Assembly (NCBI GenBank): GCA_951406725.2
Contig: OX597815.1
Coordinates: 17,670,001 to 17,734,000, forward strand
Length of the DNA stretch: 64,000 nucleotides
Source: Octopus vulgaris
Taxonomy: Eukaryota
Reading direction: 5' to 3'
In this document: positions 759 through 63,241 of the stretch, one piece after another
How positions within the stretch are numbered: the stretch's first letter is position 1
How the letters are laid out: every line of letters starts with the position of its first letter
Notes under the pieces: model-generated
What the model saw: only the letters and a program-made list of their open reading frames with translations
Told to the model about the DNA's origin: nothing
Databases searched by the model: none
Position numbers and translations under genes: made by a program

Positions 759-952
759 TAGGTCCCGGGTTGAGTCGGGGTTAACCACAGTAAATAAGGT
801 ACTCAATACATAGCAGAGTAAAGTAATTTATTTTATAGAAGGAGCTTCTACAGGACTAGAACTGTTTCATTCAGATGAAATCTTCAGGAAGCTCCTGAAG
901 ATTTCATCTGAATGAAACAGTTCTAGTCCTGTAGAAGCTCCTTCTATAAAAT

Positions 953-955
<3 letters not shown>
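759..955 (-). mobile_element. (TA)n-inserted hammerhead-bearing short element (Penelope-like terminus), family 1, folded as a palindrome
   Basis: Flanked by (TA)n on both sides. The end GTAGGTCCCGGGTTGAGTCGGGGTTAACCACAGTAAATAAGGTACTCAA recurs inverted at 63193-63241. Perfect 63-bp arms at 827-889 and 893-955. Confidence 0.7.
843..893 (-). ncRNA. Minimal type-I hammerhead ribozyme motif (canonical core)
   Basis: Minus strand reads AGCTTC-CTGAAGA-TTTC ATCT GAAT-GAAA-CAG TTCTAGTC CTG-TA-GAAGCT: 6-bp stem I, CUGANGA/GAAA core, GUA site. A mirror copy lies on the plus strand at 890-939. Confidence 0.75.
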
Positions 956-1005
<50 letters not shown>

Positions 1006-1100
1006 TGAGGGAGACAAATTAATATTAATTTAATTAATATCAATTTAAAACCAGTAGCCCAGCATACAAAAATCTGAAAAATCAGAGAAAATTCTAATAC

Positions 1101-1228
1101 ATGTGTATATTCAAAGGGCAAGACTGCTAGGTAGTTGGCCACATGCTAGAAATAGATCACTAATGTTGGTGATCTATTTCTAGCATACTGCCGACTATCT
1201 AGCGGTCTTGCCCTTTGAATATACACAT
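1101..1228. repeat. ~62-bp-arm inverted repeat ending a (TA)n-flanked element (1001-1228)
   Basis: ATGTGTATATTCAAAGGGCAAGACTGCTAG...CTAGCGGTCTTGCCCTTTGAATATACACAT. The element start resembles 25830-25910 inverted. Confidence 0.8.
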
Positions 1229-1885
1229 ATATATATATATATATACATAATGTTCTAAGGTATGTTTAGTTATTACAATGATAAATCAGGCTCTTTTATG
1301 TCTTGGAATTAATACTTTTATCTACTTGAAAATATATATTACAAACTTTAGAATATTGGTCAAGAATTTTACAATAGGAAATGATTAATGAAAGCAACTA
1401 CAAACTGGTGACATGAACAGAGAAATAATTCAATTACAGCAAAGCTTATCAGAATTATACCACTAAAAATTACTCTTGTTATAATCAAGTAATCAACAAT
1501 AACGAACTGTATATAAGAGAAACTAGCATTAAGTGGTAACAATATAAAGAGAAGAGGTTATTACCCAGACTAAAGCATTAGATTCCAAAAGCATCCGTAT
1601 AATAAGGATGAGCTTCCTAATTAAGAACCATTAGGCTTTACGCAATGAGCTATAATGCTTATAGGCTATATTTGATTTACGATGTGAATTCTGAGATGGC
1701 CTCTGAGATGTGAGAACATGATTCTAATTTGAAATGAGAAGAGAAAGCTACTCTTCTGGATGTAGTCCAGCAGGAAAAAAGAAAAATCATATGGAGTGAA
1801 GGTAATAGAAAGAAACATATATGTAACTGAATTGGTGTGGCAGGGAATAAAAAGGTGTGGAAAATAGTAAAAAAAAAAAAAAAAA

Positions 1886-1916
<31 letters not shown>

Positions 1917-3349
1917 CAAATTACAGTAGAAAAAACTTTGCTAAACAAATCATCATCTTCTTTTATGTTTTTACATCTGTTGCTCTTTATGTTCAATGGA
2001 TTCAGCTGGAAACTGGCCTTGAGCCAGCTGCCCTTTACTCATTTCCTGTTAACCTCAACTCATTTGCAGGATTTCCTTGATCTATCTGATTATCTCACAT
2101 TATTCACACCACCACTACCACCGCTACCGCCACTGCCACCACCACCACCACCACCACCACTGACAATTTCCTTATTGCAGTTTCTATGGAAGTTGCTAAG
2201 AATCCCGAGGCTTCCCCCCCTCCATAATTAGATCACATATATGAAGGAATTTTACAGCTTTGATAAACTATTAGAAGACAAGCAGCTTATGGGAGGTGAT
2301 ATATAAAAGTAATAACAGGAAAGCAATAACAGCTGTCTTGACAATCTAATCTACACCGTTATATACAAAAAGACAATTTATACAGTGGTACATTTTACCT
2401 TATTATTGGGATTACTTAAATGTGCTAATAACTCTGAGAATGATCATAAAGTAGAACTTCATTGTTAATTCATTCTTGTTTGAGACTATTTGATGTTAGA
2501 ATTGCTACCTGACAATTCTGTTCGGCAATGTCAAGTCATAAAGAATAATATTGAAATTGTAAATGAAAATTAATGAGAAAAATAAAATTAAGAGTGCTAA
2601 TGTTAATTTAAACTTTCAACCTGACAAAGTCGCAGAGATGAGAGATAAATTCCAAAATGGAAGAATGTAGAAACAAAATAGTAATATATATATAGTAATT
2701 AGAGAAATGCTTTAGACAGTTTAGTATCATTAACAAATACTACCATAAACTAAAGTTTAGCTAAACTGACAAAACTAATATAACTCTTTGCCTGTTCCCC
2801 TACCCGAGGAAAAAAATGGTTAAAAATATTAAAACCAATCATATTATTGATAAAAAAAAGTTAGATCACCAAATTTCCACTGTAAAGTTTTCCACAGCTC
2901 ATAATTTTTCTATTATTGTGATCAGAAGACATTTTCCATTAAGGCATGAGATAAAAAGTGACCTCCTGTCTATCAATTTGAAGAGTCTTAGAAATAGATA
3001 ACAAGAAAGATAATGATATTTTTCAGCAGCTCATATGTTTTATGTATCCTTCTTTGACAGAAGGACACAGAATACTAACCATCAACTGACATATTCAAAT
3101 TCTGTTTAACCAACTTTCTATAACAGCTTTATTATCGTTCTCCTATTTTCAGTACATTTTCGTCTAAGCTGACATGTTTTATGCCCATCATGTTTTATAT
3201 TTCTTTATTGATAGAGTTGAAAGTAATCGTATACAAGAAAATATTTCTAATCTTGCTTTGAAATTACTTAGGTTCTTATTTAGATTCGCATGTTCTGTCC
3301 TAAATTTATAATATCAAAACTATTATAGTGGAAATTTAAAAATATTTTC

Positions 3350-3758
3350 AGATCTTTTCAGTTTGAACGGCAGTTTTTCCTAGTGGTGTCATGTGAAATT
3401 GTCACCCATAATTATGACCCTAGTATCGATCTATTGCATTTCAATCTGTTCTAGGGTTAGGGTTAGGGGTGGGGGGAAGGGTATCTTTTTTTTCTTCACA
3501 AATGTAAATAAACCCAATCTGTTTCTTAAACGAGGGACATATTCATATGGCACAGAATGTTTTTTACCTCAATAGACATCAGTGATTGGTTGAAATTGAA
3601 GAATAAAAACAACAAATATCTTACAAACCATAGAATTTTCTCAATAAAGCCAAGAGAAAAAGATGTTTTATAAACACATTCTACCAGTATACGAAGTTTA
3701 AAATTTTTTAGTTACCAAGGAAACATGTTAAAAACTGCCGTTCAAACTGAAAAGATCC
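3350..3758 (+). mobile_element. MITE with 28-bp TIRs and 8-bp TSD (Merlin/hAT-type TSD length)
   Basis: TIR GATCTTTTCAGTTTGAACGGCAGTTTTT and its reverse complement. TSD ATATTTTC at 3342-3349 and 3759-3766. Internal TTAGGG-like repeats. Confidence 0.85.
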
Positions 3759-4599
3759 ATATTTTCTTATCACAAACTTGTTCATTCATATGGTACCACA
3801 TATAAAGCACATTACAGCATTTACCCCACCTACACTGGAAATCTTTCTCAGTTTTCTCACCCTGATTAGTAAAAAGCCCCAACCTTCTGACTGTGATGAT
3901 TGTTTGCATCCCCTTCAGCAGCTCATACAGTTTATCTAACAGACACTGCTCCTCTGTATCAGAATCTTGGCAACAACAGTAATAAAAAGTCATAGTAAAC
4001 ACCTATAACACTGAAATATAAGACGAAATGGAAAAAGAAGATACAGAATCTAAAAGTTGGGAATAAGTTTAGAGAAATTCTAATTAATGTATATGACTGT
4101 CATAGAAAGACTTAGATATCAGAGGTGACAGCTGGGGATTTCTATGAAGTAACCTGCTTAGGGCTACAGATCAGACACGTGACTGAGGCAAGGGATCGTG
4201 GTGGTGGAATAACACAGTTGATAGGGAAGTAAAGGCTAAGGGACAGACTTGTAAAACCTAGAAATTAGGTAGCAGGGAGCATTTCCAAATGGCTAGAAGA
4301 GCAGTGGGGAAAAGGTGTACTTGGATAAGGGTGAGGCAGAAAAGAAGGGATTTGTGCATGTTCTGCAATGTGAAGAATAGAGGCACAGAGTTTTCAAGAT
4401 TGTGAAACAATTTGTGAGAGAGAATTGGAACATCATTGGCAAGTGGTGTACTCAGAATAAAGAAAGTATTCTCATAATTGATATGGAAAACAAGAAAATG
4501 GTACGGAAGTGTTATTATGTTCTTATGAGGTTACCGAGTAGGGACAATGCAAGGAATATCTCATGCTGACCTTACAGAGGGACCAGCAATTCAAGCTGA

Positions 4600-5030
4600 C
4601 AGGAATGCAGACATAAAGTGATTAAAGGCATGTAAAGAGGGAAAGCTGCAGGATTCATCTGGGATAGCGCAGAGATTCTCAAAATATCTGGTAAAGTAGG
4701 ATACATGATTACCAGCTGGATAATTAATGAAATTATACAAGAAGCTGCCATACACAAGAACTAGTGTAGTACTATCATTGTAAGCTGCTACAAATTCAAA
4801 GGAAATGCCTTAGAAACAGCTATATAGGAATCAGACTATTGGATCAGGTTATGAAGGTTTTGGAACACAATTGATCCATAACAGAGTAGACCTAAAAAAG
4901 ATGCAACTTTGCTTCACACTTGAAAAAAGTAGCATGGATACAACCTTTCTAATGAGGCAATTACAGGAGAAATATCTAGCAAAGAGCAAACCATTATTCC
5001 TAGCTTTTACTGACTTGGAGAAGGTCCTAC
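4600..5030 (+). mobile_element. Degenerate RTE-clade LINE reverse transcriptase fragment
   Basis: Translates to GKAAG..AEILKISG and ..MDTTFLMRQLQEKYLAKSKPLFLAFTDLEK (RT motif 'F.DLEKAFD'), with stops and frameshifts. Confidence 0.8.
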
Positions 5031-5399
5031 CTTTCCAATCTTCTATAGTTATCATCCCTTAACACTTGTTCTTTATTATATTCATCCTCTCATCCAAACC
5101 ATCTCTCCCCCACCAATACACTCCTGTAACCTCAACAAACCCACACTTCCTGTTCTCCTATCCCTACTCACTTCTGTTCACCTGTATCTTGTGGGTTCAC
5201 CCAACCCAGACACCTCATCACCGCTATCTTATTTCTTTCCAGTTCCACCTTGGCCACTCCCACCCTCTTTCCTAAAATGTGAACAGTTATGTAGCTCATC
5301 TATTGCAAGAAACCGGTTCTATTCTGGTCCCTCCTATCACACTTTAGCCCCTCATACCACTTTACTGTATCTGCACCCAGTCAATAAGAGTTCTTGGTA

Positions 5400-5600
5400 A
5401 GGTGGTGAGCTGGCAGAAATGTTAGCATGCTGGGCGAAATGCTTAGCAGTATTTCATCTGTCTTTACATTCTGAGTTCAAATTCCGCAGAGGTCAACTTT
5501 GCCGTTCATCCTTTCGGGGGTCGATAAATTAAGAACCAGTTGCATACTGGGGCCGATCTAATCAACTGCCTAGTAAAGCCTTGTGCTTAGTGTAGAAAAG
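5400..5600 (+). mobile_element. SINE family B (CpG-decayed copy)
   Basis: GGTGGTGAGCTGGCAGAAATGTTAGC...GAGTTCAAATTCC...CATCCTTTCGGGGGTCGATAAATTAAG; homologous to the copies at 41532, 52965 and 57750. Confidence 0.85.
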
Positions 5601-5619
5601 AATAGGGGTTCTTAGTCAT

Positions 5620-5835
5620 GTGGATTGCATGGCAGCCTCACAGATGCTGGTGCCTTGAGAAAAAACACCCAGTACATGCCATAAAGTGGTTGCTATTAAG
5701 AAGGGCATTCAGTCGTAGAAACTATGTCAAAGTAAACACAGGAGCTCAGTGTAGTCTTTGGGTCTGTCGGATCTTGTCAAACCATAGAATCCATGCCAAC
5801 TTGGAATGTGAATGTTAAATGATGATGATGATGAA
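5620..5835 (+). mobile_element. Family C retroposon 3' part ending in (GAT)n
   Basis: AAGGGCATTCAGTCGTAGAAAC...CCATGCCAAC..GTTAAAT(GAT)n; homologous to 11915-12110. Confidence 0.65.
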
Positions 5836-5937
5836 ATTTATCTAAAATTTGTTTATTTGTATTAGTAATTAAAAATAGATTTTTATGACTATGATGTAAT
5901 ACCTTTTGCACAAGACAATACTTATGAAAAATCTGAT

Positions 5938-6290
5938 TCATCATCATCATCATCATCATTTAACGTCCGCTTTCCATGCTAGCATGGGTTGGACGATTTG
6001 ACTGAGGTCTGGCGAACCAAACTCCAATCTGATCTGGCAGTTTCTACAGCTGGATGCCCTTCCTAATGCCAGCCACTCCGAGAGTGTAGATGGCCAGTTT
6101 GGTGGAACTGGCAATGGCCATGCCCAAATGGTGCTTTTTATGTGCCACCTGCACAGGAGCCAGTCCAGCGGCACAGGCGATGACCTCGCTCGAATGTTTC
6201 ACATGCCACTAGCACAAGTGCTAGTAAGGCGATGCGGTAACGATCACGCTTGAATGGTGTGTTTAACGTGGCATCGGCATGAAGGCCAGC
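5938..6290 (-). mobile_element. Family C retroposon with internal ~60-bp subrepeats and (GAT)n tail
   Basis: (CAT)n-TTAACGTCCGCTTTCCATGCTAGCATGGGTTGGACG...; same family as 14140-14625 and 18480-18755. Confidence 0.8.
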
Positions 6291-7855
6291 TCAACAAAAT
6301 ATCAATACCATTCCACTTTATCAATTCAGCGACCCACAATTTCATGGTAGGGAAACCTTCAGATAGTTGTTGCTGTTTAATCTCAAGTCAGCCTTGACAG
6401 AGTGTGCTTTAGATTAAAAGTTGCTACAATTATGAACATCGGTCTTTATATTTTAATATTGTATACTAAAGTCTACATTATCCAATGTATCCAACCTTAA
6501 TATGATATGATGTGGTACGAGGAAGATTTGGTTGCAAATCAAGAAACACCTATCTTTATTTAGAGCTTTAGTCGAGAGAGGAATGGCAGTATCTATGACT
6601 CTTTGCAGGATCTCTGAGACTTGTAGTAGAGACGTTATTCTGAAACTGGAGACTTAGCTTGGTTGCTTGCAACAGAGTGACATCACTAAAGGTAGCCAAA
6701 GGTCAGAGAGGGCTGTGCAACCAGATGGTGTATTAAAAGCAATAAGAGGCTTTTCTCTTTAGTTTGTTTATAGATTGTGTTACTAAGAAGTGGAAAAATG
6801 AATAACTTCATGACAATAGAAAATATCTAATCCTAAGTTTCACATTAGCATCTTTTAAGACAAAAAAGAAAAAAGAACTTGTTTAAGAAATAGTTTTCGC
6901 TAATGAAGAACACTTTATTTATAGCAGTCTTAAATAACATCCACACAAAATGGTTAATATTGAATGGCAATACACTAAAAGCATTTCTGAGTGTTGATAT
7001 TGTTCTCAACATATTTGAAAATAAATTCTGGAAGTTCCAGAATACATCATCATCATCATCATTATCAGTATCACCATCATCATCATCATAGATGGAAATT
7101 CTATAGCACCAACACAAATGGCAATAAAATTTTATTTTGTTGTAAGCAAATAACAAATATCTATTTTGTAACCATATATGTTTTATAAACAAGGAAGACA
7201 GTTTTTATTCCAGAAGAAAAAAAATAGAGAGAGAGAGAGAGAAAAGAAAGAAAAAGAAATATGGTATTGTAAGTAAACAGTAAGAAGAGTCGTTTGACAT
7301 TCAAGAGAAAGTCTTATGTAATAGAAATGGTATGTTAATAGTATCAAAGTTAAATCATCATATATTTTGTTAGTTTCTAACATAAAATGTGTTGTCCAGA
7401 GTTTTGCTTAATAACAATAATTTTTTTTTTTTTTCTCCAATTTGCTATTTACTATTTGGTTTGAGTCCAATTTCACTTAAGTCATTAATAATATCTAACA
7501 TTTATATTTCTTGATGTACCATATTTTTGTGACAAAAACATCTGCAAATGAAGCTGCTGTTTTATCTCTGAAATGTTGGAACAGGTTGAAACAAGTGTGA
7601 ACAATGATTAATTATGTAATACACCATACAGTAAATGACATTACCAATTTAGCAGGAACAAACATACTTAGTCTAAATTGGCAGTGAAAACTGTCTTGGG
7701 TGAAAAGCCTAACTTTTTTGAGAACACATCTTCAACCGTTGTGATTTTGGTTCTTACTTAGAAACTAACTCCTAAGACCTTTCATTGGTATACTACAAGC
7801 ACTTTTATCTAATTGTGTATGCCTTATATACATTCAATGATGTACAAAAAGTGCT

Positions 7856-8310
7856 TTTTTTTTCTTTCTAGTTTTAGCTCAGAGCTGTGGCCATGCTGAA
7901 GCACCGCCGTTTTGTGCTACACTGTTATTACTAAGACCCTCCTCTAATATGTGGCACTTGGTGAAGAATGGAATTTGATATAGTTACTCTCATTTCCACC
8001 TCTTGCCGTGAGGTAGTTTTCAACTGGGACTCTCGACAGGAAGAGGTCCAGCTTTGCTTTAAAAAACCCTACATCTACTTTGTGCAAATTCCTCAGACTC
8101 TTTGGGAGAATATCAAAAAGCTGTGGGCCCTTGAAACCCAGGCTGCTGCAGTAACTGGTCCTGAAGCGTGATGGTATTGCTGGGATCTTTGGCACTATGC
8201 AGTGTCGACCCGTTCTGGCATTGGTGTAGTTTTCAATGCCAAAATTTGGCACAATTCCTTCCAGGATCTTCCAGATATATATTACTGCATACCTGTCCCA
8301 TCTTCTCTCC
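7856..8310 (-). mobile_element. 3' end of a CR1/L2/Jockey-group LINE (ORF2 C-terminus plus 3' UTR)
   Basis: SLERRWDRYAVIYIWKILEG...GPQLFDILPKSLRN...FKAKLDLFL is a typical ORF2 C-terminus. The 3' end reads GGCGGTGCTTCAGCATGGCCACAGCTCTGAGCTAAAAC followed by an A-rich tail. Confidence 0.85.
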
Positions 8311-8624
8311 AAAGACAAAATGTTTTTGCAAAGACAAAATGGAACCAAAATTAATTATATCGCACAAAGCACGACATAGGTATAAATAAATAATTTTGTT
8401 CAAAAACATAATTTGTTGACCAAATTATTAATTGAAACATTATTCTTATTCGAAACCATTTTGTTTACCTGGCTAGGTATACAAAGTTACACTGAAGTAT
8501 TTGATATGATAAAACTCTTTTGGTGAGAAATGTATAAAATTATAGTCAGAAGGACTAAAATAATTTAAATGTAACCATTGGTGTAGTTAATAGTTAAGTT
8601 GAAGTCCATACATGTCCATAGGTG

Positions 8625-8948
8625 CAGGAAGTGTCTTCTACAATAGCCTCGGGCCGACCAAAGCCTTGTGAGTGGATTTGGTAGACGGAAACTGAAAGAA
8701 GCCTGTCGTATATATGTATATATATATATGCGTGTGTGTGTTTGTATGTCTGTGTTTGTCCCCCTAGCATTGCTTGACAACCGATGCTGGTGTGTTTATG
8801 TCCCCGTTTCTTAGCGGTTTGGCAAAAAGAGACCGATAGAATAAATACTGGGCTTATACAAAGAATAAGTCCCGGGTCGATTTGCTCGACTAAAGGTGGT
8901 GCTCCAGCATGGCCACAGTCAAATGACTGAAACAAGTAAAAGAGTAAA
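8625..8948 (+). mobile_element. SINE family A, 5'-truncated
   Basis: AAGTGTCTTCTAC..GGGCCGACCAAAGCCTTGTGAGTGG...GCTCCAGCATGGCCACAGTCAAATGACTGAAACAAGTAAAAGAG. Confidence 0.9.
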
Positions 8949-10104
8949 ATAGTAGTACATGTGGTTATACATTTGTCCACATGATATCACAGTAAACTTA
9001 AAAGTGATTTAAGACCAACCAAAGAAGTTTTGGTGGTTGAATTTACTTTAAATTTCTAAATTAAACACAAGAACATTCTTTTCAAACCAGACTTTCAATT
9101 TACTATTTGATAGTAGTTTTCAAAATTTTTAGTTTTTGCCAAGATTTAGTTGAAAATTGTAATTGTTCTGATGAATATAATACCCAACTGCAACTGTACA
9201 CCTGCTGACATTTACTTCTGAGACAAAAAAGAAGCTTAATTTTTAAGTAATCCCTTCCTTAGAGAATTTCTAAAATTAACAAACACTAATGAAAAAGGAA
9301 AGAAGAGAAAGAAAATTCAAGAATTTCTTCAAGAATTTCCTCCAAAGAAATGGCTTTAATCTGCAATAAGGCATTTGATCAAAGTTGCTAATAGTGTTGG
9401 ATATGCAGAAATGCTGATGAGATTCAAATATTACAGAGTAAAACATCAGTGCATTATTTAACCTCTAAATATAAAAGAAACAGACAAGTCTTTCAGAAAA
9501 GTAGTTTGTTAATAAATGTATAAAAAAAAAAAAAAGAGTTCTTAGAATAAAAAACAAAAAAAATCTCTTTTTAACTAGATTATTAATTAAAGAATGAATC
9601 TTCCTAGAAATCAATTACTTTAGTTTGAGAAGTATACAAAGTTAGATTGAAATATCAAAAGTAGTAAAATAGAACTTACACATAGATGGGATTGAAAATT
9701 GAAGTTGATTTACAACAGGCCATTGTTGATTTTCTTTTTTTGTTTTTTGAGCCTAAATCAACAATAAATGTAGGTTCCGATACGAAAATAAAATATCAGT
9801 ATTTCACGCTTCAGTAGAGTTTTGATTAATTGGTGAGTTCGTTTCCAAGAAAATAACAGAAGATAATTTCACTGAATGAAAAATCCGAAGTATCATTTCC
9901 CCCCCATTAAAACACACAAAGTGTGTAACTCCTATGTAAGAATGCAGAAAGTGTCAACTCCGAGTATGAAGACATCCTGAGAGCTTTCATTAAGAAAGTG
10001 GTTTTTCAAATATGTGATAAAGGGAAAGTTATTAAGAATCTGTATTGAGAAGTACTACAAGGAACTGATCCGTTCACAGCAGCTAAAGTTGACGCCATTC
10101 ATAC

Positions 10105-10460: not shown

Positions 10461-10877
10461 CTAGAAACAAAACACCAACGAAAATTTCGACCCGTAAAGA
10501 ATAAATACTAGATAACTAAATAAAGTAGGCTGGTGTTCTTTATCAATGACTTACACTCTAAATGAAAATAGTTTCAATATCTTAGACAAGAGCATTTCAC
10601 AAAATTAAGCTGATTCATCATTACAAACGTATAGAGATATAGTTTTATTTCCTAACATCAGTGGAATTTAACAACCATTCAAAACCTAAAAGTTCATTAT
10701 GTTTCTTAATGAACGATGATGATTATTATTGCTGTGGTTCTTGCAATAAATATACCACCTCCACTACACCACTTATTTTGCTCCCAATCAGAATTTGATT
10801 TTAACATAACTTACTTTCAAGAACTAAACCCTGCTCCATTGACATAGCATTACATTAAACGCTACACAATACATATT

Positions 10878-12380: not shown

Positions 12381-12680
12381 TTCTGTTGTGTCTGGGGAGA
12401 GTCATTTTCTTTGTGTGCCTTGTAGTGTAACACACTCACCGGTAAAATTTTCACTTTTTTTTTTATTTTTATTTCCCTAAAATTTTTGTTGCGTCTTGCA
12501 ACCTTTTCAATAGTTTTGACTAGGAAAATAAAAATAATAAAAAAGTGGAAATTTTACTGGTGAGTGTGTTACACTATAAGGCTCAAAAAGAGAATGACTC
12601 TCCCCAGACACAACAGAATATGCTTCAACACACGAACTCATATAAAGAATCTTGCAAACCAAATCCAAAAACGAAATATT
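12381..12680. mobile_element. Family 5 hammerhead-like element folded as an inverted repeat (arms 12381-12479 and 12521-12618)
   Basis: TCTGGGGAGAGTCATTTTC...CACACTCACCGGTAAAATTT. Further copies at 19415-19605, 22080-22202 and 56112-56212. The motif at 12477-12513 on the minus strand has G12>A. Confidence 0.75.
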
Positions 12681-19380: not shown

Positions 19381-19414
<34 letters not shown>

Positions 19415-19418
<4 letters not shown>

Positions 19419-19605
19419 TGTTATGTCTGGGGAGAGTCATTTTCTTTTTGTGCCTTATAATGTAACACACACACACCGGTAAAATTTCCACTTATTTCTT
19501 ATTTTTATTTTCCTAAAATTTTCATTGCGACTTGCAACCTTTCCAATAGTCTTGACATGAACTCATATAAAGAATCTTGCAAACCAAATCCAAAAACGAA
19601 ATATA
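19415..19605 (-). mobile_element. Family 5 element with hammerhead-like motif (19513-19549)
   Basis: CTA-TTGGAAA-G GTTGC AAGTC GCAAT-GAAA-AT-TT-TAG, then a ~95-nt tail into (TA)n; (TA)n on both sides. Confidence 0.65.
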
Positions 19606-19780
19606 TATATATATGCGCCTGCGATCCACCTAAGTCACTGCTGGTGATATCAATTTTAAAATTTATCCACAGATGATATGAACAGTAGTGACATCTGATT
19701 TCAAATCTCAGTGTTTGTATGTTTTGCTTATATATACAAACACACACACATATATATATATATACACATATATACATGTA

Positions 19781-22024: not shown

Positions 22025-22081
<57 letters not shown>

Positions 22082-22227
22082 CTGGGGAGAGTCATTTTCT
22101 TTTTGTGCCTTATAATGCAACACACTCATCGGTAAAATTTCCACTTTTTCTGTGACATTAAAAGGCTCAAAAAGAAAATGACTCTTCCCCAGACAACAGA
22201 ATATTTTTCGTACTATAATAGTTCCCC

Positions 22228-25541: not shown

Positions 25542-25544
<3 letters not shown>

Positions 25545-25735
25545 GGAGTAAACACATAAATGTGAAACAAGGTGGAAAAAAGAGTACGTGAAAATACCAG
25601 TGGTAGAGTAATATGCTTTAATTTAAAGCAGCAGAAAAATTCAACAAAACCTGTTACTCTGAGTTTCCCGTTGCCGTTCGTCGGAAACTCAGGGTAACAG
25701 GTTTTGTTGAATTTTCTGCTGCTTTAAATAAAGTA
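25542..25735 (-). mobile_element. Family 2 (TA)n-inserted element with CCGACGA hammerhead-like motif and inverted arm
   Basis: Minus 25684-25650 reads CCGACGA-A CG GCAA CG G-GAAA-CTC A GAG-TA-ACAG. Arms at 25622-25667 and 25684-25728. Confidence 0.65.
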
Positions 25736-25992
25736 TATATATATATATATATATATATATTTCTAGCATAAGGGTGTCCACATAGTGGTTTCCCTCTAGT
25801 ATGTATATAATACAATTTTACTGAACCTTCTGTTTTTTTTATATGCTAGACCACTGGTGTGAAATCGATGTTAATTAAATTAATATCTAATTTCTCACCC
25901 TCATTTTAAATATCTATCTATCTATCTTATCTCTCTCTCTCTCCATATATATATATATACCGGAGTAAGCACATAAATGTGAAACAAGGTAG

Positions 25993-26034
25993 AAAAACTG
26001 TCCGACGAACGGGAAACTCTGAGTAACAGTTTTT
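25993..26034 (+). ncRNA. Hammerhead-like motif, family 2 (stem II truncated)
   Basis: AAAAACTGT-CCGACGA-ACGG-GAAA-CTC T GAG-TA-ACAGTTTTT: 9-bp stem I, GUA site. Confidence 0.55.
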
Positions 26035-27544
26035 TGATATTTCTGCTGCTTTTAATAAAGTATACATACACACACACACACACACGTATATATATATATC
26101 GTTTGTAAAAAAAACATAAACCTGTAAGAAGAAATACACTCTAAGATGTAGAGCAGTATATATCGTGTATATTAAAAATGGGGAGGGCCGGTTTATGGGA
26201 TGACCTTAGGATTCCCGTCCATAAAGGGTCTAGCCTTACAGCGTATCGTCAGATCCCAAAAACCTATAGGCCCATGACCTCTTATATATATATGATTTCC
26301 AACTATGAACTATATATATATACATACAACTTATAATTAATTTCATGTATTTAGCACTGATTGCTAAAATAACGAGCAGTTTAAAATGTAGACCCCTTAA
26401 AAAATGTGTTTTATTTGGCATCTATACTTCACATCCCATTTGGGGCTATCGCTGGATGTGCACAGGCCCTGTGCATGAATGTAAGCGTTTCTGGACAAAA
26501 GCAAAGTGAAAATTAGCTTAATCAATAAATATGTGAATGCACATATCTTATAGATATATCAATAGATGTTTATACGTGCTGGGGTCAGTGGCGCAGCGTG
26601 GGGTGTGACGTATGTTTGCAGTAGTAGAAGGTATGATATGTTTAGGAATGGGGCAGCCAGCTAAAGCCCACACTTAGCTATAGTCTGGGGCATTTTCATC
26701 ATATTAATATCATATATAATATTTATGCGGATGTTGTGTACACACACACACATACACATACCCACAATATTATGTAGATGGTTAAGGGTTAATCATCCAG
26801 CGATGGGAGCACCTGGCCAAACCTGCACATGGCCAGCGTAAAGCCTTACCCAAAACAGCTGGGCGTGCACGCGCACACACACACACATATATACACAAAA
26901 TACATGTGTGTGTGTGTGTGTGTATTTATCATATAAAGGCATATGAGTGATATGCTTAATCGGTTACCCAGTTCAACAACACTTTAGTGCCCACCTTCAG
27001 TTTGCAAGCATTCGTTCGGGATAGGCCTCTCTGGTATAAAGATTTATCTTCTTTCTCCCCAGCCTCGGAGGACACGAGATAGGCCTCGGATGCTGCCCCT
27101 CCTTGTTTCACTAACTTATACATAAAAAAGAAGCCCTTCGTGTATAATATATGTACATACATACACACACACACATATGTAGAACAGAAAATAAATATGT
27201 GCACACGATGAAAGGAAGATCTGTGTTAGTTTTTCATTCAGGCTGTTCTCTCGGCTGAATGTTGTAATTGTTGTCGATATTAAAAACAGGCTGTTATTGA
27301 TCATATCATACCATATATACAAAGAACACATGCTCATTTCACTTTACACAGAGTTTACTTTCGAAGTAAAATAGTTTGGCGCCAGTATATGAGCGAACAA
27401 TTGGTTCTTGTTTCAGGTTTTTCGTTCGTTCTTCCTTTCTTTCCTTTAAATTTTAGAATCTTCGGACACACACAACGCCTCCAAAACAACGAAAATATCA
27501 CTACACGCATACTTCAGCCAACGAAGGAGCCACCATGCAGTCGC

Positions 27545-31049: not shown

Positions 31050-31102
<53 letters not shown>

Positions 31103-31463
31103 ATCCAAACAAGAAAGCACAAAAAAACACAACAACGCGAGGACGTGGAACAAATATAGTATTATTGGACGCTCAGGAAAGAAGGAGGGTTTAACGTTTC
31201 GAGCGGAGCTCTTCGTCGGAAACATAGGAGAAGGAAAGATCCAGAGAAGACAGAGGAAAAAAAATCGACAACGGTACACACGAGGTCACATTTTTGTATA
31301 TATATATACGACGGGCTTCTTTCAGTTTCCGTCTACCAAATCCACTCAGAAAGCTTTGGTTGGCCCGAGGCTATAGTAGAAGACACTTGCCCAAGGTGCC
31401 ACGCAGTGGGACTGAACCCGGAACCATGTGGTTGGTAAGCAAGCTACTTACCACACAGCCACT
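30850..31463 (-). mobile_element. SINE family A interrupted in its internal (TA)n by a hammerhead element (31098-31292)
   Basis: Tail at 30850-31060 and head at 31300-31463 are collinear with uninterrupted copies. Confidence 0.9.
31189..31223 (-). ncRNA. Minimal hammerhead-like motif, family 3
   Basis: GTTT-CCGACGA-A GAGC TCC GCTC-GAAA-CG-TT-AAAC with palindromic stem III (AACGTT). Confidence 0.6.
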
Positions 31464-37451: not shown

Positions 37452-37483
37452 TATATATATATATGTATATGCATATATATTGA

Positions 37484-37799
37484 GAAATGGAGATAAGAAA
37501 GTTGATTGTTTCTTATTAATAAATTGGTCATCTTCACTGCTTACAGCTGTTTCAATTAATATTGAATAATTTAATTACAAATTTGTACATTAAAATTACA
37601 TTTATGTGACATGAGTATAATTTCATCAGAGGAAAAAAGATCTAGCTTTGGATGTTGTTATATGTGAGCTTATCAGTAGAGTAAATTCAACGTAAAAATT
37701 TGTAATTAAATTATTGAGTATTGATAGAAACAGCTGTAAGTTGTGACGATGACCAATTTGTTAATAATAAACAATTATTAACTTCCTTATCTCCATTTC
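37484..37799. mobile_element. (TA)n-adjacent inverted-repeat element with long-stem-II hammerhead motif (37540-37632, minus)
   Basis: Arms GAAATGGAGATAAG... / ...CTTATCTCCATTTC. Minus strand CTGATGA-AATTA...TAATT-GAAA-CAGCTG-TA-AG; a second GAAACAGCTGTAAG sits in the right arm. Confidence 0.65.
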
Positions 37800-37958
37800 C
37801 TTCTCTTTCTTTTAAATAGATATAAGCTATATGCTTTATATATACCAAGTGTTTTAAGGGAGTTTCATTCCCTCAAGATAGTAGATATTGAACCTGTATT
37901 TCCTTGGATGAAACCATCCCTTCACGAGGTTAACATATCATCTAATTAAATTTAATAC

Positions 37959-38286: not shown

Positions 38287-38342
<56 letters not shown>

Positions 38343-38444
38343 GTTAATCCAAACAAGAAAACAAAAAGACAACAACGCAAGGATGTGGAACAAATAAAGT
38401 ATTATTGGACGCTCAGGAAAGAAGGGAAGAAGGATAATATGGAA

Positions 38445-45513: not shown

Positions 45514-46692
45514 TATAACCATATATGTGTATACATATATGCATATATATGTATATACATGTATATATATGCATATGTGTGTGTTTGTTTGTGGCGTTGT
45601 TAGCTAGCTCCTTCTACATAGTTTTATTGATTTTCATAAAACTTGACACGTGAGTAGAAATCATGTCTGGAAATCCCGTGGCATACTTAGATTGTTGAAA
45701 AATCGATAATAGGTCCCTGGAAGGGATCTTTATATCTAACTAATATTTTCTTAAAAAACACCCAAGGGAAATAACCCATACCACCTGCACAATATTTTGT
45801 TTTAAACACTCAAGGGAAATAACCCATTGCAATTGCATGTTTATTCCAATTCAATAAGTTTGTCCCAGTACAATGAACTCATACTTTGAATGCTTAAAAT
45901 TTTTTAAAAAATGAAACCTAGCTTCCATACCACATTGACTTGCGACAACCTATTTCAATTATACCTATTTTAGAAATAATAATATTTACTGCTTACTTAC
46001 AGTTCATACAACATTTTGATGAACGCCTATTCTAATTCATTATCTAAACTGTTATATACATATTGCTGTAATTAATTTACACATTGCATTAATACACACT
46101 TTTGCAACATCTCCAAATAACTAAATTCTGGCAATGCATACAGGGTTTTCAATTCAATTTCATTATACTTCGCATACCCATAACTCCGATAATTCTGCAT
46201 TTTTCCAGTTAGAATTTTTCGATGATAGAAGATAATTTTTTGATTCCAGAACTTATTGAATAAGTGTGTTCCAATACAATGATCTCATACTTTGAATGAT
46301 TAAAATTATTAAAAGATGAAAAACTTCCATACCACATACAGTTATTTACTTTGAATTGATATTATCTCATATGTAATTAACCTGTTATTATGTAAAATGC
46401 CTCACGATTTTCCTCTACATACTTTATTAGTATTTCCTTCTGAGTTCTCTGGGAACACATTAAAGCCCTTTCCAGAGCTACTTATTTGAGTTCTTACTAT
46501 CAGTTAACTAATTTCATGTTATTACTGACTTTGTAATTTGGGTATCTATAACTTATTGGGAATTTCTAAAAATAAGATCCTGTGTAACACAGGTATTCTC
46601 TGTAAATGCACAAAAACCGTCTTAGGTCTACATACTTTGTATTGTTGTTATTGGATTAGCGAAACGATTATGATTTTATTTCCTTCTCCTAT

Positions 46693-46727
46693 ATTTCCGA
46701 CGAAGAGATCCGCTCGAAACGTTAAAT
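46693..46727 (+). ncRNA. Minimal hammerhead-like motif, family 3 (element ~46680-46820 ending in (TA)n)
   Basis: ATTT-CCGACGA-A GAG ATCCG CTC-GAAA-CG-TT-AAAT; the tail is shared with 31098-31188 and 38341-38425. Confidence 0.6.
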
Positions 46728-46816
46728 CCTCCTTCTTTCCTGAGCGTCCAATAATACTATATTTGTTTCACGTCCTCGCGTTGTTGTGTTTTTTTTGTGC
46801 TTTCTTGTTAGGATTA

Positions 46817-46860
<44 letters not shown>

Positions 46861-47882: not shown

Positions 47883-47930
<48 letters not shown>

Positions 47931-48083: not shown

Positions 48084-48313
48084 TCCAACGAAAACGAAAT
48101 CTTAGTACGAGGAGCCATAGCAGAAATATTTGTAATGATGATCATGATGATGATGTGATCATAATCACGACCATGATGGGAATTCTGGTGGTTGAAGATA
48201 ATGCCAAAGAGAATGATCTGACAAAGAATATGCGAGTTATTGTTGTGGTTAGCATATGAAAGGAAATATTTCGCACAGTTAAATATTTCGGTTTGATATT
48301 ACTGATATGTAGA

Positions 48314-50116: not shown

Positions 50117-50194
50117 GCAGTTGCCATGATAGATTGTTAGCCACTACACACATGTTTTCTCTCCTTCTTTCTCTCCTTGTTTTTTTCTGAGTCC

Positions 50195-50230
50195 CTTTCT
50201 GTAGAAGAGCGTAGGCTCGAAACGTAAAAG
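50195..50230 (+). ncRNA. Minimal hammerhead-like motif, family 4 (CUGUAGA core)
   Basis: CTTT-CTGTAGA-A GAGC GTAG GCTC-GAAA-CG-TA-AAAG, then a ~90-nt tail to (TA)n; the tail recurs at 62812-62875. Confidence 0.6.
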
Positions 50231-50318
50231 ACTTTTTCTATTCCTGAGCGTTATACTAATACATCTGTTTGTTTTGTACATCACCTGTCTTCGTCTTTTG
50301 TTTGTTTTCATAAACTCT

Positions 50319-50364
<46 letters not shown>

Positions 50365-53195: not shown

Positions 53196-53284
53196 GTTAA
53201 TAATATAGCAAGATTTCAAACATCGATTTCGATCAGAAACTTTTCCAACACCTTTTTTTTCTTGCATCCATGTGCACGTGTGTG

Positions 53285-55876: not shown

Positions 55877-56168
55877 TTAGTAAAAAAAAAATTACTTCTT
55901 TCTAAATTATAAAGGAGTGTAGATACGATCAAGCGAATCTATTGAGTTTAATTGCAACTTAGCTTTTCAACAACCTTTGACAACGGCGTGTATTCAAATC
56001 TGTTATTGACCTAAGTAACAACAAAGTACAGTCGATTTCGCTTACTTTCGTACCCTATAATTGCATATTTCGCTAATTTGCATAACTTTTCAAAACACCG
56101 AACCTTTTAGCATTATAATGTAACACACTCACCGGTAAAATTTCCACTTATTTCTTATTTTTATTTTC

Positions 56169-56205
56169 CTAAAATTTTCATTACGTCTTTCAACCTTTTC
56201 AATAG
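56169..56205 (-). ncRNA. Hammerhead-like motif with U3-A8 covariant core, family 5
   Basis: CTA-TTGAAAA-G GTTG AAAGACG TAAT-GAAA-AT-TT-TAG with palindromic AAAATTTT stem III. Confidence 0.5.
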
Positions 56206-57379
56206 TCTTGACTCTTTTAGCATTAGCTCTCCGGAAAAATCAACCGATGAAAGTGTTCGCACAAATAAAGTCAACTGTGGCTAATTGTACCCTGTATTCT
56301 TCAAGTTGTAGTTTTAAATTGAAAGATCTCCTAAATTTAGATATTTACTTGATTTGATATGACACGGGATGCTTCAGTATTCATAATGAATTAGAATGAA
56401 AGCAACCAGTATTGCACTTTTATATATGAAAGACGATAAAACGGCTTATTGTATTTAAGTACCATTTTTATGAGTCAAAGACTGATGGAGCTCAGACGTC
56501 GGTGTATATATATCGTATTTACATTGCATGATAAAAATATTCTTTAATAGATATATATTTTCATCATAGATAAAATTTGTAAAATTGTAGTTTTTAATCA
56601 AGAAGTGGACGGACGCCATTTTGTTGCTACTGTTATCAGTAACATTCGCTTAGGATTGATCCAATAAAACCTTTCTTAACCTTCATGATTCTAGTTATTA
56701 TAAGTGAGTAATAGAAAATGTTTAGAAGCCACTGACGGGTTTTTCAGGAAGCCTGAATCTAGATAAACTTTGATAATCGAAGAATATCAAAGGGAGCTAC
56801 AAAACCTAGTAAGAAGTCAAACGATTGCGTTGCCAATACGTATCATTAAAAAAATGGTTTGAACTAAGCAAATCATAGTAAATTATGTGTACATAAAACA
56901 TACAATAAATATATAAAAAAATTTAATTCTTGTTTAATTACACAGCGCAATCATTTATAATACAGCCACAATATTTTACTACAGACATTTATTGCTTTTT
57001 GAGTGATTTCGGATAATTGTATAAGAATGTTAATCATCGAAGATATGCAATTAAGCGGACTCAACTGTGTATAATTCGACAAGTTACTATTTGCGCTAAA
57101 TATAAAACTATAAAAACTTATTGAACAATTTCTTCTACCCCAAAAGTTTGTCTCTTTGGGGATGATAGTTGGCTAACAAAACGCCCCAGATAATAAGTGT
57201 TTTCCTTACACATACGCATCCGTACACACAGCATCTTGTCATAAGATCGTAAGAGTGAAATATGATACTGTTGGAATTGTCAACAACTTTACTTTAAATA
57301 TTTCACCTTTAGGGTGTTTGCTATTTAGACTTGAAGATTTTCTTATCCTAAACAATAAACTAAACAACGTGTGGGTGCG

Positions 57380-57488: not shown

Positions 57489-57749
57489 GTGTGTGTATGT
57501 GTGTTTGAGAGTTCGCGTATGGGTTGTAAATTAAGAATTACGAACACATAAAAATAATTTTTCCGTGAGAATTATGAATAGGAGTCTCAGAACACTAAAT
57601 TAGAAAAAATTCATCTACGATGATGAGATCTTAGTAGAAACTAGTTTTGTATATATTACAAGGTATGTACTTCTAATATGAAGAGAAAGTCAAAACAATG
57701 TCATATATAGGATAAGCCTATAACACTATCTGTAATATTTATCTAAGCA

Positions 57750-57980
57750 GGGCGGCGAGCTGGCAGAATCGTTAGCACGCCGGGCAAAATGCTTAGAGGT
57801 ATTTTGTCTGCCGTTACATCCCGAGTTCAAATTCCGCCGAGGTCGACTTTGCCTTTCATCCTTTCGGGGTGGATTAAATAAGTACCAGTTACGCACTGGG
57901 GTCGATATAATCGACTTAATCCGTTTTTCTGTCCTTGTTTGTCCTCTCTGTGTTTAGCCCCTTGTGGGTAGTAAAGAAAT
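57750..57980 (+). mobile_element. SINE family B
   Basis: Family consensus. Confidence 0.92.
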
Positions 57981-60282
57981 GGAAATAGAAATATAATCGT
58001 GTTTTTAAAACAAATCTATGAAGAGATTTCTCATCTCGGACAATTTCATAGCCTCATACCTTCTAACGGTGTGTGTACATTTAGTATGATACACCGATGG
58101 CCATATTATATACGTGTGTGTGTGTGTGGGAGGTTTAAAACATCACCATAGATAAGATAATCCCCTTTCAATAGATATTCATTAATGATCATATTCTAAG
58201 AGCAGCATTTTAATAATGCAAAATACCAATAACTGGAATATTTTGAGATTACCAGATTTAAATATATGACGCATATTTTTCTTTTTTAGATTCTTAGTTT
58301 AATTGGGAACGATTTGCATGCAATATTGTTACGACTGATGTCTCTAACAATGAAATATAAGTAAAAGAGGTTTTAATAAAACTGGTAAAACGGAGTAAAT
58401 TGAAATTATATATTGTATGTTGGCTGGAAGCATAAATCGAAAGGAGGATGAACAAAAGTGAAATGATTTTATCCATCCCGCACTTCGATTTAGGAATGTG
58501 AAATGGTTATTTATAAGGAATGAGTAAATATATTAGTAAATACGAAAAAGGCAATACATGTGAATATATAGAATTGCGTTATAGGATGAAGTTTTGTGAA
58601 ATTATAGAGAATAAAAATGGGGAAAAATGTAGATCGAATTAATATCAATATTGAAGGATTGAAAAAAATAAGAATAAAAATAAAAAACAGACTGTGGAAT
58701 AAAAAAAACAGCAATATAATAAAAAGAAAACTGATACAGATTGAAGAATAATAAAAATTAATTGAAAATAAGAAATATTTGGGAGTAAGTGGATATCTAA
58801 GTGCATCTATGCACCTGAGAAGGCGAAAGAAATTATTACATTGTCAGAAGTAGTTTTAAATCATATTGTCTAGCAGATTCATCCAATTGTTTTATTATAA
58901 GTTTTAGATGTGAATAAATATTTTTCTAATTTTATCCATTTTATCCATTTTATCCCGTACGATTTATTTTAACGATGTACAACACGGAAGGGCAACGAAA
59001 TAAATAAAAATCGATACAGTTCGAAATTGATAGGTACTAAACTTGTCTGGCGATTTTTTGAAGTACCATATTATTGTTTCGTTTTACTGAGCTCATTTCT
59101 TGACTAATGGTAAGGTAACATTATAAGGTTAGGAAGAATTTTTTTATATACAAATGTTTCAGGAAACCAGGAAAATATGTCTGATCATTTATTGATCATT
59201 TATGAAACAAATAAATAAAACTAATAATTTAAAATACAATGGTAAACAGGAATCATTTCCATTCTTAACCCATCATTACAATTTCTTCACCATCGAGTTG
59301 TCTAAAGATAAAATTCTGTTCATCACCTCCACAACATATAAAACTTTATTGTTTAGCATTATATCTACCAGTTTTCTCTTGATAGTCTTTAATATCCTAA
59401 TCAACAATACTTTTTTCGAAAGTCCTTTTTTTGCGTATATATATTCCTACTTGCACTTCTTACACAAGACCAATAATTACCTTGTACCAAATTTCACCGA
59501 ACTTCTCACACACTTATACCAGAAATATTATCATAGGCTTTGGACACAACCCATTGTTTTTTTTTTGTTTTAGTTGATTAGCGTATAAGTAGACAAAATT
59601 GGCTATTAACGTCAACTTGAAACGTCTTTAATTAGTCAGAAAGCCAATATTTATGAGGAACAGTTATATTACTGAAGTATATCACAGGTACTTATTTTAT
59701 TAACGCTCGAAACGTGATAAAAAAAAAAACTCGGGACGAACAGAGATAACAATAAATACACAAATACATTATTTGTTTCGATGGTTTTATCTTTTTTGTC
59801 AACATGTCACCGCCATAACTCCTCGCCATCAAAAATACTGGCATCAATATGTCTCAATCTATATGTAAAATGAAAACTAGCGTGTTAAGCAGGCATTCAT
59901 GTTGTTTTTCAGCCCCAGGTTAGTCTGATTGAGCAAACCCATGATCTAAGGTATTTCAGTCGAAAATACTCTCCGTCGTCTTCATTACTTAATGTATCCT
60001 CTTTTTTTAAGACGATAGGGTTGGATTTGAGGGAAATTTAATAGTTATTTCTTGCAAGTCGAACATTCACAGAAAGGTTCCTTTATTAGTTCGACATATT
60101 TAAACGGTTTCTTAGCAAGATGTCATACAAAATTCACTTCAAATTAGTTTATATTTAAAAAAAAAAAAAGAAAAGAAAAAGAAGGAAAATGAACATCGCT
60201 TGCCATCTTCAGAGAAAGTCAGTGAAGTGGTTACTGTTTCATATAATGTCTTTAAAGTCGATGCTTTAAAGGGGATAAAAAT

Positions 60283-61116: not shown

Positions 61117-61117
<1 letters not shown>
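61058..61117 (+). mobile_element. tRNA-derived SINE head or tRNA pseudogene
   Basis: TGGAGTAGTGGTTAAGAGCGCGGGCTACTAACCCCGGGATTCCGAGTTCGATTCC: A and B boxes present, no intact acceptor stem. Confidence 0.65.
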
Positions 61118-61173
<56 letters not shown>

Positions 61174-61175
61174 CT

Positions 61176-61510
61176 AAAAGAAATGGAGAAACTCTCAAAA
61201 TACAAAGACCTGGAATAGAGGTAACTAGAATGTGGAATCTGAAAACAGAAACAATTCCTATCATAGTAGGTGCATTAGGCATGATAAAAAAATATTCAGA
61301 CAAATACATAACAAAAACACCAGGACTTACAAACACATATAACATACAGAAAATTGCACTACTAGGCACTGCACACATCCTACGCAGAACACTTTCCATA
61401 CAATAACCATCAGAGCATCACAACAAATCACAGCACATACCCAAGGCACACAGAGCTGCGCTCGGTAGTGAAGTGAAAGCACGCTATAAAAATAAAAATA
61501 AAACTACTGA
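61176..61510 (+). mobile_element. 5'-truncated R4/Dong-clade non-LTR retrotransposon in (TAA)n
   Basis: KEMEKLSKYKDL/IEVTRMWNLKTETIPIIVGALGMI...IQKIALLGTAHILRRTL* (restriction-like endonuclease C-terminus, one frameshift, stop at 61404-61406); (AAT)n on both sides. Confidence 0.82.
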
Positions 61511-61814
61511 ATAATAATAATAAAGTGATGCAGTGATTTATTGTTATTTAGATTAACTGACAAAGTTCTGTAATGCATGCAAGTGAAAGTATATTTAATA
61601 TGAGCAAATGTACATATGAAACTTAGAACAAAAAGTCAAAGTAGGCAAACATGCAATCAAGTGGTGAGACTATTTCTCCTCTGACAGAGTTTCGTCCGCA
61701 TGAGGAAACAATTCTATAAATGACATAATGATGTCTCTATTTATTGATTAAGGTAGGCTCCAAACGATACCTACGTTCTTCAGGTGATAATGCCTAATGT
61801 AAAGTTTGCCAAAT

Positions 61815-62207
61815 GTAGGCGCAGGAGTGGCTGTGCGGTAAGTAGCTTGCTTACCAACCACATGGTTCCGGGTTCAAGTCCCACTGCGTGGCACCTTGGG
61901 CGAGTGTCTTCTACTATAGCCTCGGGTCGACCAAAGCCTTGTGAATGGATTTAGTAGACGGACACTGAAAGAAGCCCGTCGTATATATGTATATATATAT
62001 ATGTGTGTGTTTGGGTTTGTCCCCCCAACAACGCTTGACAACCGATGCTGGTGTGTTTACGTCCCCGTAACCTAGCGGTTCGTCAAAAGAGACCGATAGA
62101 ATAAAGTACTAAGCTTACAAAAAATAAGTCCTGGGGTCGATTTGCTCGACTAAAGGCGGTGCTCCAGCATGGCCACAGTCAAATGACTGAAACAAGAAAA
62201 CGAGTAA
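61815..62207 (+). mobile_element. SINE family A, full length
   Basis: GTAGGCGCAGGAGTGGCTGTGCGGTAAG... through the family tail. Confidence 0.92.
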
Positions 62208-62871
62208 ATGGAATGTAGCTACTTCTAAAACATTTCGAGGAAGTTATATCTTCGACAAAGGGTGTCGAGAACGATATGGTGGACCGGAATGTGAAAAGCA
62301 CAACTTCCCAAGACGAGGATTGCACAAATAATCATACTAAAACCTGGCACTGATACTTTGGTTCCATCGTTAAATTACATTCACATGTTTATGGCATATT
62401 AGATGCTATACGTAAAGAACAGCATCTTCTTGATGTTGGAAAGTTAGTCGATGAAGCGATGCACTCGTTATGCCAAAGAATATAAATGGTATTAGTTCCT
62501 TAGAAAGAATTCAAGTTGTATTGAACTATGTAAATAGAGATTTTGAGCAACATTTGAGGTATTACGTATCTAATCAAGAATATAAATGAAATTCTTGATT
62601 TAGTGAGTATTACTTTTTCTCATAATGACATTTATATATATGTATGTATATATTGCTGTATTTGGGGCTGGTCATGTTGCCAGTTTAGCCAATGAAAACA
62701 CACGCACTGTAAATTTGGTGTTCACTTGGATTCAGCTTTATTTCATATTAATTGTATTTCGGCCAGAGTTCATTCGTCACACTTCCTTGCCTTCTTATAT
62801 ATATATACACACACATCTGTTTGTTTTGTACACCACCTGTCTTCGTCTTTTTTTTTTTTTTCGTAAACTCT

Positions 62872-62924
<53 letters not shown>

Positions 62925-62928
<4 letters not shown>

Positions 62929-63241
62929 ATTATATAGAAGGAGCTTCTACAGGACTAGAACTGTTTCATTCAAGAGAAATCTTCAGGAAGCTAGTTAACA
63001 AGAATTGTATTGGCATTTATACATTTAGGCAGGTTTAAAGGGTGTTATATATATTTTTATTTTTTAATTTTTTATTTATTCTTCTAGCTAATTTAACACT
63101 GACTCCTTGACCACTCCCCCAAGTATGATATTTTGCGCTATGCCTACCCCCCAAAAGTCCCCCACCAACACCCCTTTAAACCTGCCTAAATGTTGAGTAC
63201 CTTATTTACTGTGGTTAACCCCGAATCAACCCGGGACCTAC
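62925..63241. mobile_element. Family 1 element, rearranged, with hammerhead motif at 62942-62992 (minus)
   Basis: AGCTTC-CTGAAGA-TTTC TCTT GAAT-GAAA-CAG TTCTAGTC CTG-TA-GAAGCT; internal inverted pair at 63021-63046 and 63167-63193; (TA)n on both sides. Confidence 0.75.

Follow-up and report, generated by a model that had tools for sequence, protein, structure and literature searches.

Introduction

Penelope-like elements (PLEs) are retroelements whose pseudo-long terminal repeats (pLTRs) can carry a minimal hammerhead ribozyme. Here, we analyze a stretch of 64,000 nucleotides from Octopus vulgaris (positions 17,670,001 to 17,734,000 of contig OX597815.1, assembly GCA_951406725.2, 2.80 Gb in 227 contigs; the whole stretch is called the window below), in which an earlier note had placed hammerhead motifs at eleven sites close to (TA)n arrays. 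These motifs are very probably the ribozyme-bearing pLTRs of several PLE families, the short copies being likely end-only insertions into (TA)n that were made from uncleaved RNA.

The closest described motifs are the minimal hammerheads in the pLTRs of metazoan PLEs. According to the sections consulted of Cervera and de la Peña (2014; PMC4209133), these are type I ribozymes with a short stem I, an additional base between positions 9 and 10.1, a palindromic stem III and a U3-A8 variant, found mainly as single dispersed motifs of truncated PLEs with some close opposed pairs. The octopus motifs resemble them in all these respects and differ in their number and in the core: C4 or U6 occurs in none of the aligned supplementary motifs of that study that were examined.

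Further traits of PLEs are on record. Transcription has been described to initiate inside the pLTR (PMC2377424), rotifer PLEs form head-to-head repeats with palindromic junctions together with solo pLTRs (PMC3846280), and a bias for insertion into (TA)n has been published (PMC8557442). For the anole element Poseidon PAc, Frangieh et al. (2024; PMC11167929) report that the PLE protein nicks both strands, that two internal start sites of the reverse transcriptase (RT) 3' of the hammerhead define the tail, that uncleaved RNA is the main template and that the ribozyme cleaves only with protein. The role of the PLE hammerhead is still described as open (PMC8557442, PMC11167929). A repeat study of O. 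vulgaris lists PLEs at 6.83 % with 190 families, and the word 'ribozyme' is absent from its main text and the supplement consulted (PMC13282606); literature searches pairing hammerhead with octopus returned no relevant report. Minimal pLTR hammerheads are already published, as are (TA)n as a target, the arrangement in head-to-head pairs and a tail on one side only. What goes beyond this are the scale of the motif, a U6 core under apparent constraint and the 5' junction peaks.

Hammerhead motifs in the window

All eleven sites carry a hammerhead-like core or its decayed remains. They belong to six families, A to F, where at least five had been proposed, and occur on both strands. A strict type I descriptor gave four matches in the window compared to 0.2 on average across 30 dinucleotide shuffles, and a relaxed descriptor was passed by six of the eleven sites (843 with its minus arm, 31189, 46693, 50195, 56169 and 62942). 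The motifs of the window are real and far above chance expectation. The remaining five sites are damaged or atypical: G12 is changed to A at 12477 and A6 to G at 19513, the 5' arm of stem I is gone within the fold-back at 25650, stem II is deleted at 25993 (partly, according to the reading of the locus), and at 37540 stem II spans about 70 nt and stem I just two pairs. The annotated copies, three of them reduced to the tail, are as follows.

759..955, both strands: family C head-to-head pair amid (TA)n arrays; minus arm with core 887-881, predicted cleavage after 849 and a long tail of 91 nt; plus arm with core 895-901, predicted cleavage after 933 and a short tail of 22 nt
12381..12678, minus: family D fold-back; U3-A8 core 12510-12504 with mutated G12; 11-bp direct repeat on each side, without (TA)n
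19414..19614, minus: family D copy within (TA)n; core 19546-19540 with A6 changed to G; opposed long-tail stub
22077..22225: family D fold-back, tail-only and coreless; absent from the earlier note
25543..25733, minus: family E fold-back within (TA)n; C4 core 25684-25678, predicted cleavage after 25655; an inverted arm substitutes for the 5' arm of stem I
25960..26064, plus: family E copy; core 26002-26008, part of stem II deleted
31099..31294, minus: family A solo pLTR; C4 core 31219-31213, predicted cleavage after 31193, tail of 94 nt, (TA)n on both flanks
37483..37850, minus: family F head-to-head pair; canonical core 37629-37623 on the minus arm, together with a long stem II and predicted cleavage after 37542; plus arm from 37681 coreless
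38341..38434, minus: family A tail-only copy; absent from the earlier note
46679..46820, plus: family A copy; core 46697-46703, predicted cleavage after 46723, tail of 97 nt, then (TA)n
50117..50321, plus: family B solo pLTR; core 50199-50205 with U6, predicted cleavage after 50226, tail of 95 nt, then (TA)n
56113..56213, minus: family D copy with the U3-A8 core (56202-56196) intact and the tail short; flanked on each side by a 12-bp direct repeat, without (TA)n
62804..62874, plus: family B tail-only copy; runs into a (TA)n array common to the neighboring C copy
62926..63241, minus: family C copy; canonical core 62986-62980, stem I of 6 bp, hairpin stem III, predicted cleavage after 62948; accompanied by pLTR sequence upstream and by a long-tail stub in opposed orientation

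One layout had been proposed for all sites. The core or its remains is indeed common to all eleven, but the uniform tail of 60 to 110 nt is not, as tails measure 11 to 165 nt and come in a long and a short form. Similarly, (TA)n flanks most sites, but not the D sites 12477 and 56169, where the direct repeats of 11 and 12 bp are found instead. Among the 150 of 314 Rfam matches listed for the window there was no hammerhead family, only microRNA-type matches on TA repeats; the inverted-repeat search was dominated by TA arrays, and the scan for tRNAs found zero.

Two opposed canonical cores at 36906-36976, CUGAAGA on the plus and CUGAUGA on the minus strand, each have GAAA but no proper UH or stem I and are possibly decayed remnants of additional families. 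A further TA-flanked repeat family lies at 1000-1232, with a fold-back at 1097-1232, and at 25745-25955. Its AT-rich end resembles the F tail and no hammerhead core was recognized in it; as these repeats may be extra PLE ends, the motif counts may be low.

Termini linked to PLE coding sequence

No PLE coding remnant lies inside the 64-kb window itself. Extension of the families in the genome toward RT and GIY-YIG open reading frames (ORFs), as the earlier note had suggested, gave direct links to coding remnants for four of the six (A, B-like, C and D), which supports its reading of the motifs as PLE termini. In family A, two of seven extended loci are linked: L278 is a complete element of pLTR, ORF and pLTR, whose RT and GIY-YIG are frameshifted, and L272 holds a second A-type endonuclease remnant 2.2 kb upstream of an A motif. 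The sampled stretch L076 contains a GIY-YIG remnant, 61 % identical to that of family A over 108 aa, followed by a B-type motif with a decayed core. For family D, an endonuclease match was found at 16 of 20 loci, and at 8 of the 20 the D motif follows downstream on the same strand. In family C, one of three long insertions (L346) contains a remnant of the endonuclease in collinear order with the C end. The link of family F to PLEs is only suggestive.

A GIY-YIG search of the genome returned 148 matches, many of them within open frames of 781 aa that encode RT with GIY-YIG at the C-terminus, behind an upstream ORF1; Pfam GIY-YIG and RVT_1 were recognized on intact PLE ORFs. At the end of this 781-aa family, a minimal hammerhead of the U3-A8 type lies about 63-75 nt upstream of (TA)n. 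Altogether, three PLE families found by GIY-YIG have a minimal hammerhead at their end, its distance to the following (TA)n being about 57-138 nt. The homologs of the 781-aa ORF are RT and GIY-YIG proteins with no clade names attached, and the D-linked protein falls into GIY-YIG/HTH_animal clusters in Atlas.

The order of RT and GIY-YIG, a CX2-5CxxC linker, internal cysteines and a microsatellite bias are features of the Neptune/Nematis elements in the text of Craig et al. (2021; PMC8557442), and they were found in the A-, B- and D-linked proteins and in those of the families N1 and N2 (linker before GIY-YIG in L066, L071, L278, L076 and the D-linked proteins). This putative assignment follows the motifs described in that text, and the D-linked protein is divergent. 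Family C resembles the Hydra clade of the same paper, with a CxCX5C linker, C-terminal CxxC/CxH, neither internal CxxC nor CCHH, a canonical core and (TA)n targets; its protein motifs were read from one frameshifted locus, L346, which is an endonuclease remnant only, and no RT was found in the three C insertions examined. In contrast to the Hydra elements, described as shorter than 3 kb (PMC8557442), the C element has a 3' untranslated region (UTR) that exceeds 3 kb.

Some neighboring observations concern the coding elements themselves. L066-L070 (L069:1581-3017) represent a young, intact two-ORF PLE with a 479-aa ORF1, the 781-aa RT/GIY-YIG and many open-frame copies; in the single case of L069, the upstream pLTR begins some 7 nt ahead of the predicted site of cleavage. 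Several proteins closely related to that of the PLE are named as genes of bivalve bacterial symbionts, which are likely host DNA within those assemblies. GIY-YIG remnants at L111 (C pair) and L148 (D copy) and PLE remnants at L117, L140 and L155 were not accepted as links, being set apart by (TA)n or unrelated DNA.

Anatomy of the insertions

All six long two-ended insertions (L067, L071, L072, L346-348) combine one long-tail arm with one short-tail arm, and most of the short C, D and E pairs listed do the same. The terminal repeats are inverted in these six and direct in L278. At the short end, the element sequence is TATATA or ATATAT in A, C, N1 and N2 and ATAT in D and E, a TA-like motif with the potential to pair with nicked (TA)n. 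For anole PAc, too, two 3' ends downstream of the hammerhead, insertion from uncleaved RNA and AT-rich targets are described (PMC11167929). There are two differences: octopus tails amount to about 30-70 nt in this comparison (11-165 nt across the window sites), and the octopus start sites bear TA-like motifs that might pair with the target, whereas the PAc start is given as not homologous to its target (PMC11167929).

Just two of 100 termini have a 5' end within 5 nt of the predicted cleavage site, with no excess there; cleaved RNA thus leaves no mark. The 5' junctions pile up further upstream. In family A, 23 of 27 copies begin at -86 to -119 from the predicted cleavage site, three being longer and one shorter (29 loci examined, two without anchor), and nine sampled A copies begin in the same range. 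In family D, 17 of 28 arms begin at -36 to -45, seven of them at exactly -42. Both the D peak and the F peak (-150) open with AGTC, which we take to resemble an initiator. The family-specific pile-up upstream of the ribozyme likely marks a putative RNA start.

The near-fixed length of the A copies, at about 200 nt, and the sharp D peak would also be expected if the short copies stemmed from short, non-autonomous masters of their own, similar to short interspersed nuclear elements (SINEs) or solo retrozymes, with an origin in pLTRs and dependent on PLE proteins. Non-autonomous elements of PLE origin have been published (PMC8557442; bioRxiv 10.64898/2026.07.22.740005), and among the loci examined neither E nor B proper has a long copy. 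We nevertheless consider such masters unlikely: short and long copies have sequence and tail in common, the long tails lead on into the element's 5' UTR and its ORF1, 3 of 27 A copies and 4 of 28 D arms extend far beyond the peak into the 3' UTR, and the 5' ends are staggered.

Animal non-LTR retrozymes are described as short, non-coding, PLE-derived elements with a type I hammerhead (PMC7761336; bioRxiv 10.64898/2026.07.22.740005), which the octopus copies resemble. They differ from them as truncated ends of coding elements and in the lack of head-to-tail arrays with one ribozyme per unit: none was found among 81 tandem-repeat rows of the window, and occasional stacked pairs at L024 and L082 are split by (TA)n. 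The window elements are not tandem retrozymes, and the labels 'non-autonomous' and 'retrozyme-like' given to them before find no support, as the families extend into protein-coding PLEs. Their whole layout is the published PLE layout.

Abundance in the genome

The genome was sampled with 91 stretches of 10 kb at round coordinates on 30 contigs (910 kb). The relaxed descriptor found 28 matches in this sample compared to 0, 1 and 0 in three shuffles, and in 16 of the 28 (TA)4 lies at most 200 nt from the predicted cleavage site. Extrapolation gives about 86,000 descriptor-passing motifs (Poisson 57,000-125,000). BLAST with 14 natural reference copies, six of them drawn from the sample itself, detected 81 termini, of which 60 reach the core; counting both arms of pairs, the latter scale to about 185,000 (141,000-238,000). 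For family B, an exact pattern of 34 places has 12,724 matches genome-wide and its reversed control none; since the sample holds five of these against 4.1 expected, the count can be regarded as calibrated.

Cervera and de la Peña report about 2,000-9,000 motifs per genome (PMC4209133), so that the octopus load, in the order of 100,000, looks roughly tenfold above the published genomes, although the descriptors differ and the comparison is not like for like. The very large repertoire predicted earlier is supported as a motif count, but not as a count of working ribozymes, because the copies are dispersed, decaying monomers.

The excess over shuffles also bears on the idea that the motifs are chance matches in AT-rich DNA or DNA hairpins resembling miniature inverted-repeat transposable elements (MITEs). 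Many inverted repeats with TA flanks and weak folding energies would suit it, but fixed 3' ends, variable 5' truncation and unequal arms would not, and the collinear RT/GIY-YIG remnants refute it for families A to D; overall, we regard it as highly improbable.

Two further observations concern single families. Family C is very young, with about 30 of the listed 99 %-identical ends on contig 1 alone (L309-L325, L346-L348); they form inverted pairs at distances of 0.5-9.5 kb, and their TG-rich UTRs are several kb long. L035:2185-2372 and nine further sampled places represent an abundant family with a canonical CUGAUGA core that is not obviously TA-bound; its 5' ends cluster at -47 to -50 in five of ten.

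Core variants and constraint

Within the window, the textbook CUGANGA core (C3 U4 G5 A6 N7 G8 A9, with GAAA and UH in the standard motif) is restricted to families C and F. Family A and part of the E copies have C4, B has U6 and D the U3-A8 variant; stem III is palindromic in A, B, D and F and a hairpin in C and E. Across 13 families, the stem I arms form 3.8 of 4 pairs with their own partner compared to 1.2 with swapped arms, and stem III is palindromic in 11, a test that is partly circular as the descriptor demands the stems. MAFFT could not align the families with each other (column identity 39 %).

Family B was analyzed using 48 distinct copies. C3 is present in 48, U4 in 46, G5 in 45, U6 in 47, G8 in 46 and A9 in 47 of them, while position 7 accepts all four bases (A18/U14/G9/C7) and position 17 is A35/U9/C4 with zero G. 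N7 and H17 are the only non-CpG columns of the motif with shared variation; the other common variation concerns CpG sites. The genome-wide exact motif agrees with this, with 12,724 matches carrying H17 against 89 with G17 and U17 in about a quarter of the first 100 matches listed, and contigs from four public runs (three studies) vary at N7, H17 and CpG sites as well. This limited variation indicates that the parent elements altered the positions that are free in a hammerhead and kept the rest including U6, so that the U6 core is under apparent constraint, as judged from the copies. In runs labelled as three other organisms, 29-52 % of the family B words are present, and B may thus predate a species split. 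C4, which family A has in 35 of 43 copies, recurs as CCGA in unrelated families at L071, L248, L155 and L207, whose sister copies have U4.

Whether such cores still cleave can be argued both ways. The hammerhead fold of A and B may have been retained for protein binding or dimerization after cleavage was lost, an alternative that we take seriously but hold to be somewhat improbable. It would explain why U6 and C4 prevail, and it agrees with reduced activity after A6 and U4 changes in tested hammerheads (PMC3088659), with insertion in vitro that did not need cleavage (PMC11167929) and with the missing excess of 5' ends at the predicted cleavage site. However, H17 in the B subfamilies is A, U or C and not G, as if the cleavage chemistry were selected, a modest argument given only two or three parent states; U4C, although it reduces activity in vitro, is a known active natural variant (PMC3088659).

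A literature search pairing hammerhead with A6U yielded nothing but a twister paper. About 150,000 hammerhead variants were reportedly compiled by Lünse et al. in 2017, and these might already include the variants seen here. A bolder picture, which we put forward only tentatively from sequence patterns and think doubtful, would be a load in the order of 100,000, the largest in the literature consulted, led by the U6 lineage, which keeps the freedoms at N7 and NUH and would be an active natural A6U ribozyme with dimerization or the PLE protein rescuing it, and with solo copies of fixed length as strong-stop-like run-offs that map the transcription start of each family.

Proposed mechanism

Several points speak against the motifs being PLE ends copied from uncleaved RNA. 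The links for B and C are one locus each, and the B-linked copy (L076) belongs to a related subfamily with a decayed core. Family E had no coding link in 25 loci, an inverted end next to an RT remnant is all that was found for family F, and the endonuclease-bearing families L051/L053, L283 and L285 gave no descriptor match within 3 kb. The core is missing in 7 of 10 sampled D termini. Six monomers fold no better than shuffles (z -0.79 to +1.29), and of the core changes, A6C leads to low rates (PMC3088659). Finally, the junction samples are top matches to queries extending to -45 in A and -41 in D, which leaves shorter copies under-counted, whereas the drop beyond the peak is not a ranking artefact.

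For the reading of the motifs as PLE ends, which we prefer, the following course can be envisaged. The element endonuclease would nick (TA)n and the RT would likely copy only the end of an uncleaved RNA, with two start sites giving rise to the long and the short arms. Fold-backs could form where two cDNAs join through a local palindrome. If priming takes place in the 5' pLTR of the RNA, run-off at the transcription start might produce the solo copies of fixed length with a whole ribozyme, a step for which we see the chances as evenly balanced. Selection would keep the ribozyme in the parent elements, cleavage probably being slow and taking place as a dimer or aided by protein, and the scattered single copies would be mostly inert.

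Other repeats of the window

Among the ORFs of at least 130 aa in the window, no host protein-coding gene is evident. The segments 7944-8354, 43961-44362 and 44665-44800 (minus strand) read by eye like C-termini of the RT of long interspersed nuclear elements. Two other high-copy families of short interspersed repeats are present with 7-14 self-matches each: one at 8629-8949, 10870-11290, 33137-33580, 47658-48725 and 61816-62208, and another at 5399-5567, 41527-41775, 52737-53199 and 57740-57991.

Implications

A use of these ribozymes by the host does not follow from the findings. For the biology of PLEs, the octopus genome offers statistical power of an unusual degree, as it combines young intact ORFs with 13 or more ribozyme families and copies in the tens of thousands. 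Selection on the parent elements can be read from the core variants, and the junction peaks turn into testable sites of transcription and priming. In comparable genomes, many short 'SINE-' or 'MITE-like' repeats at the edges of TA arrays are likely PLE ends.

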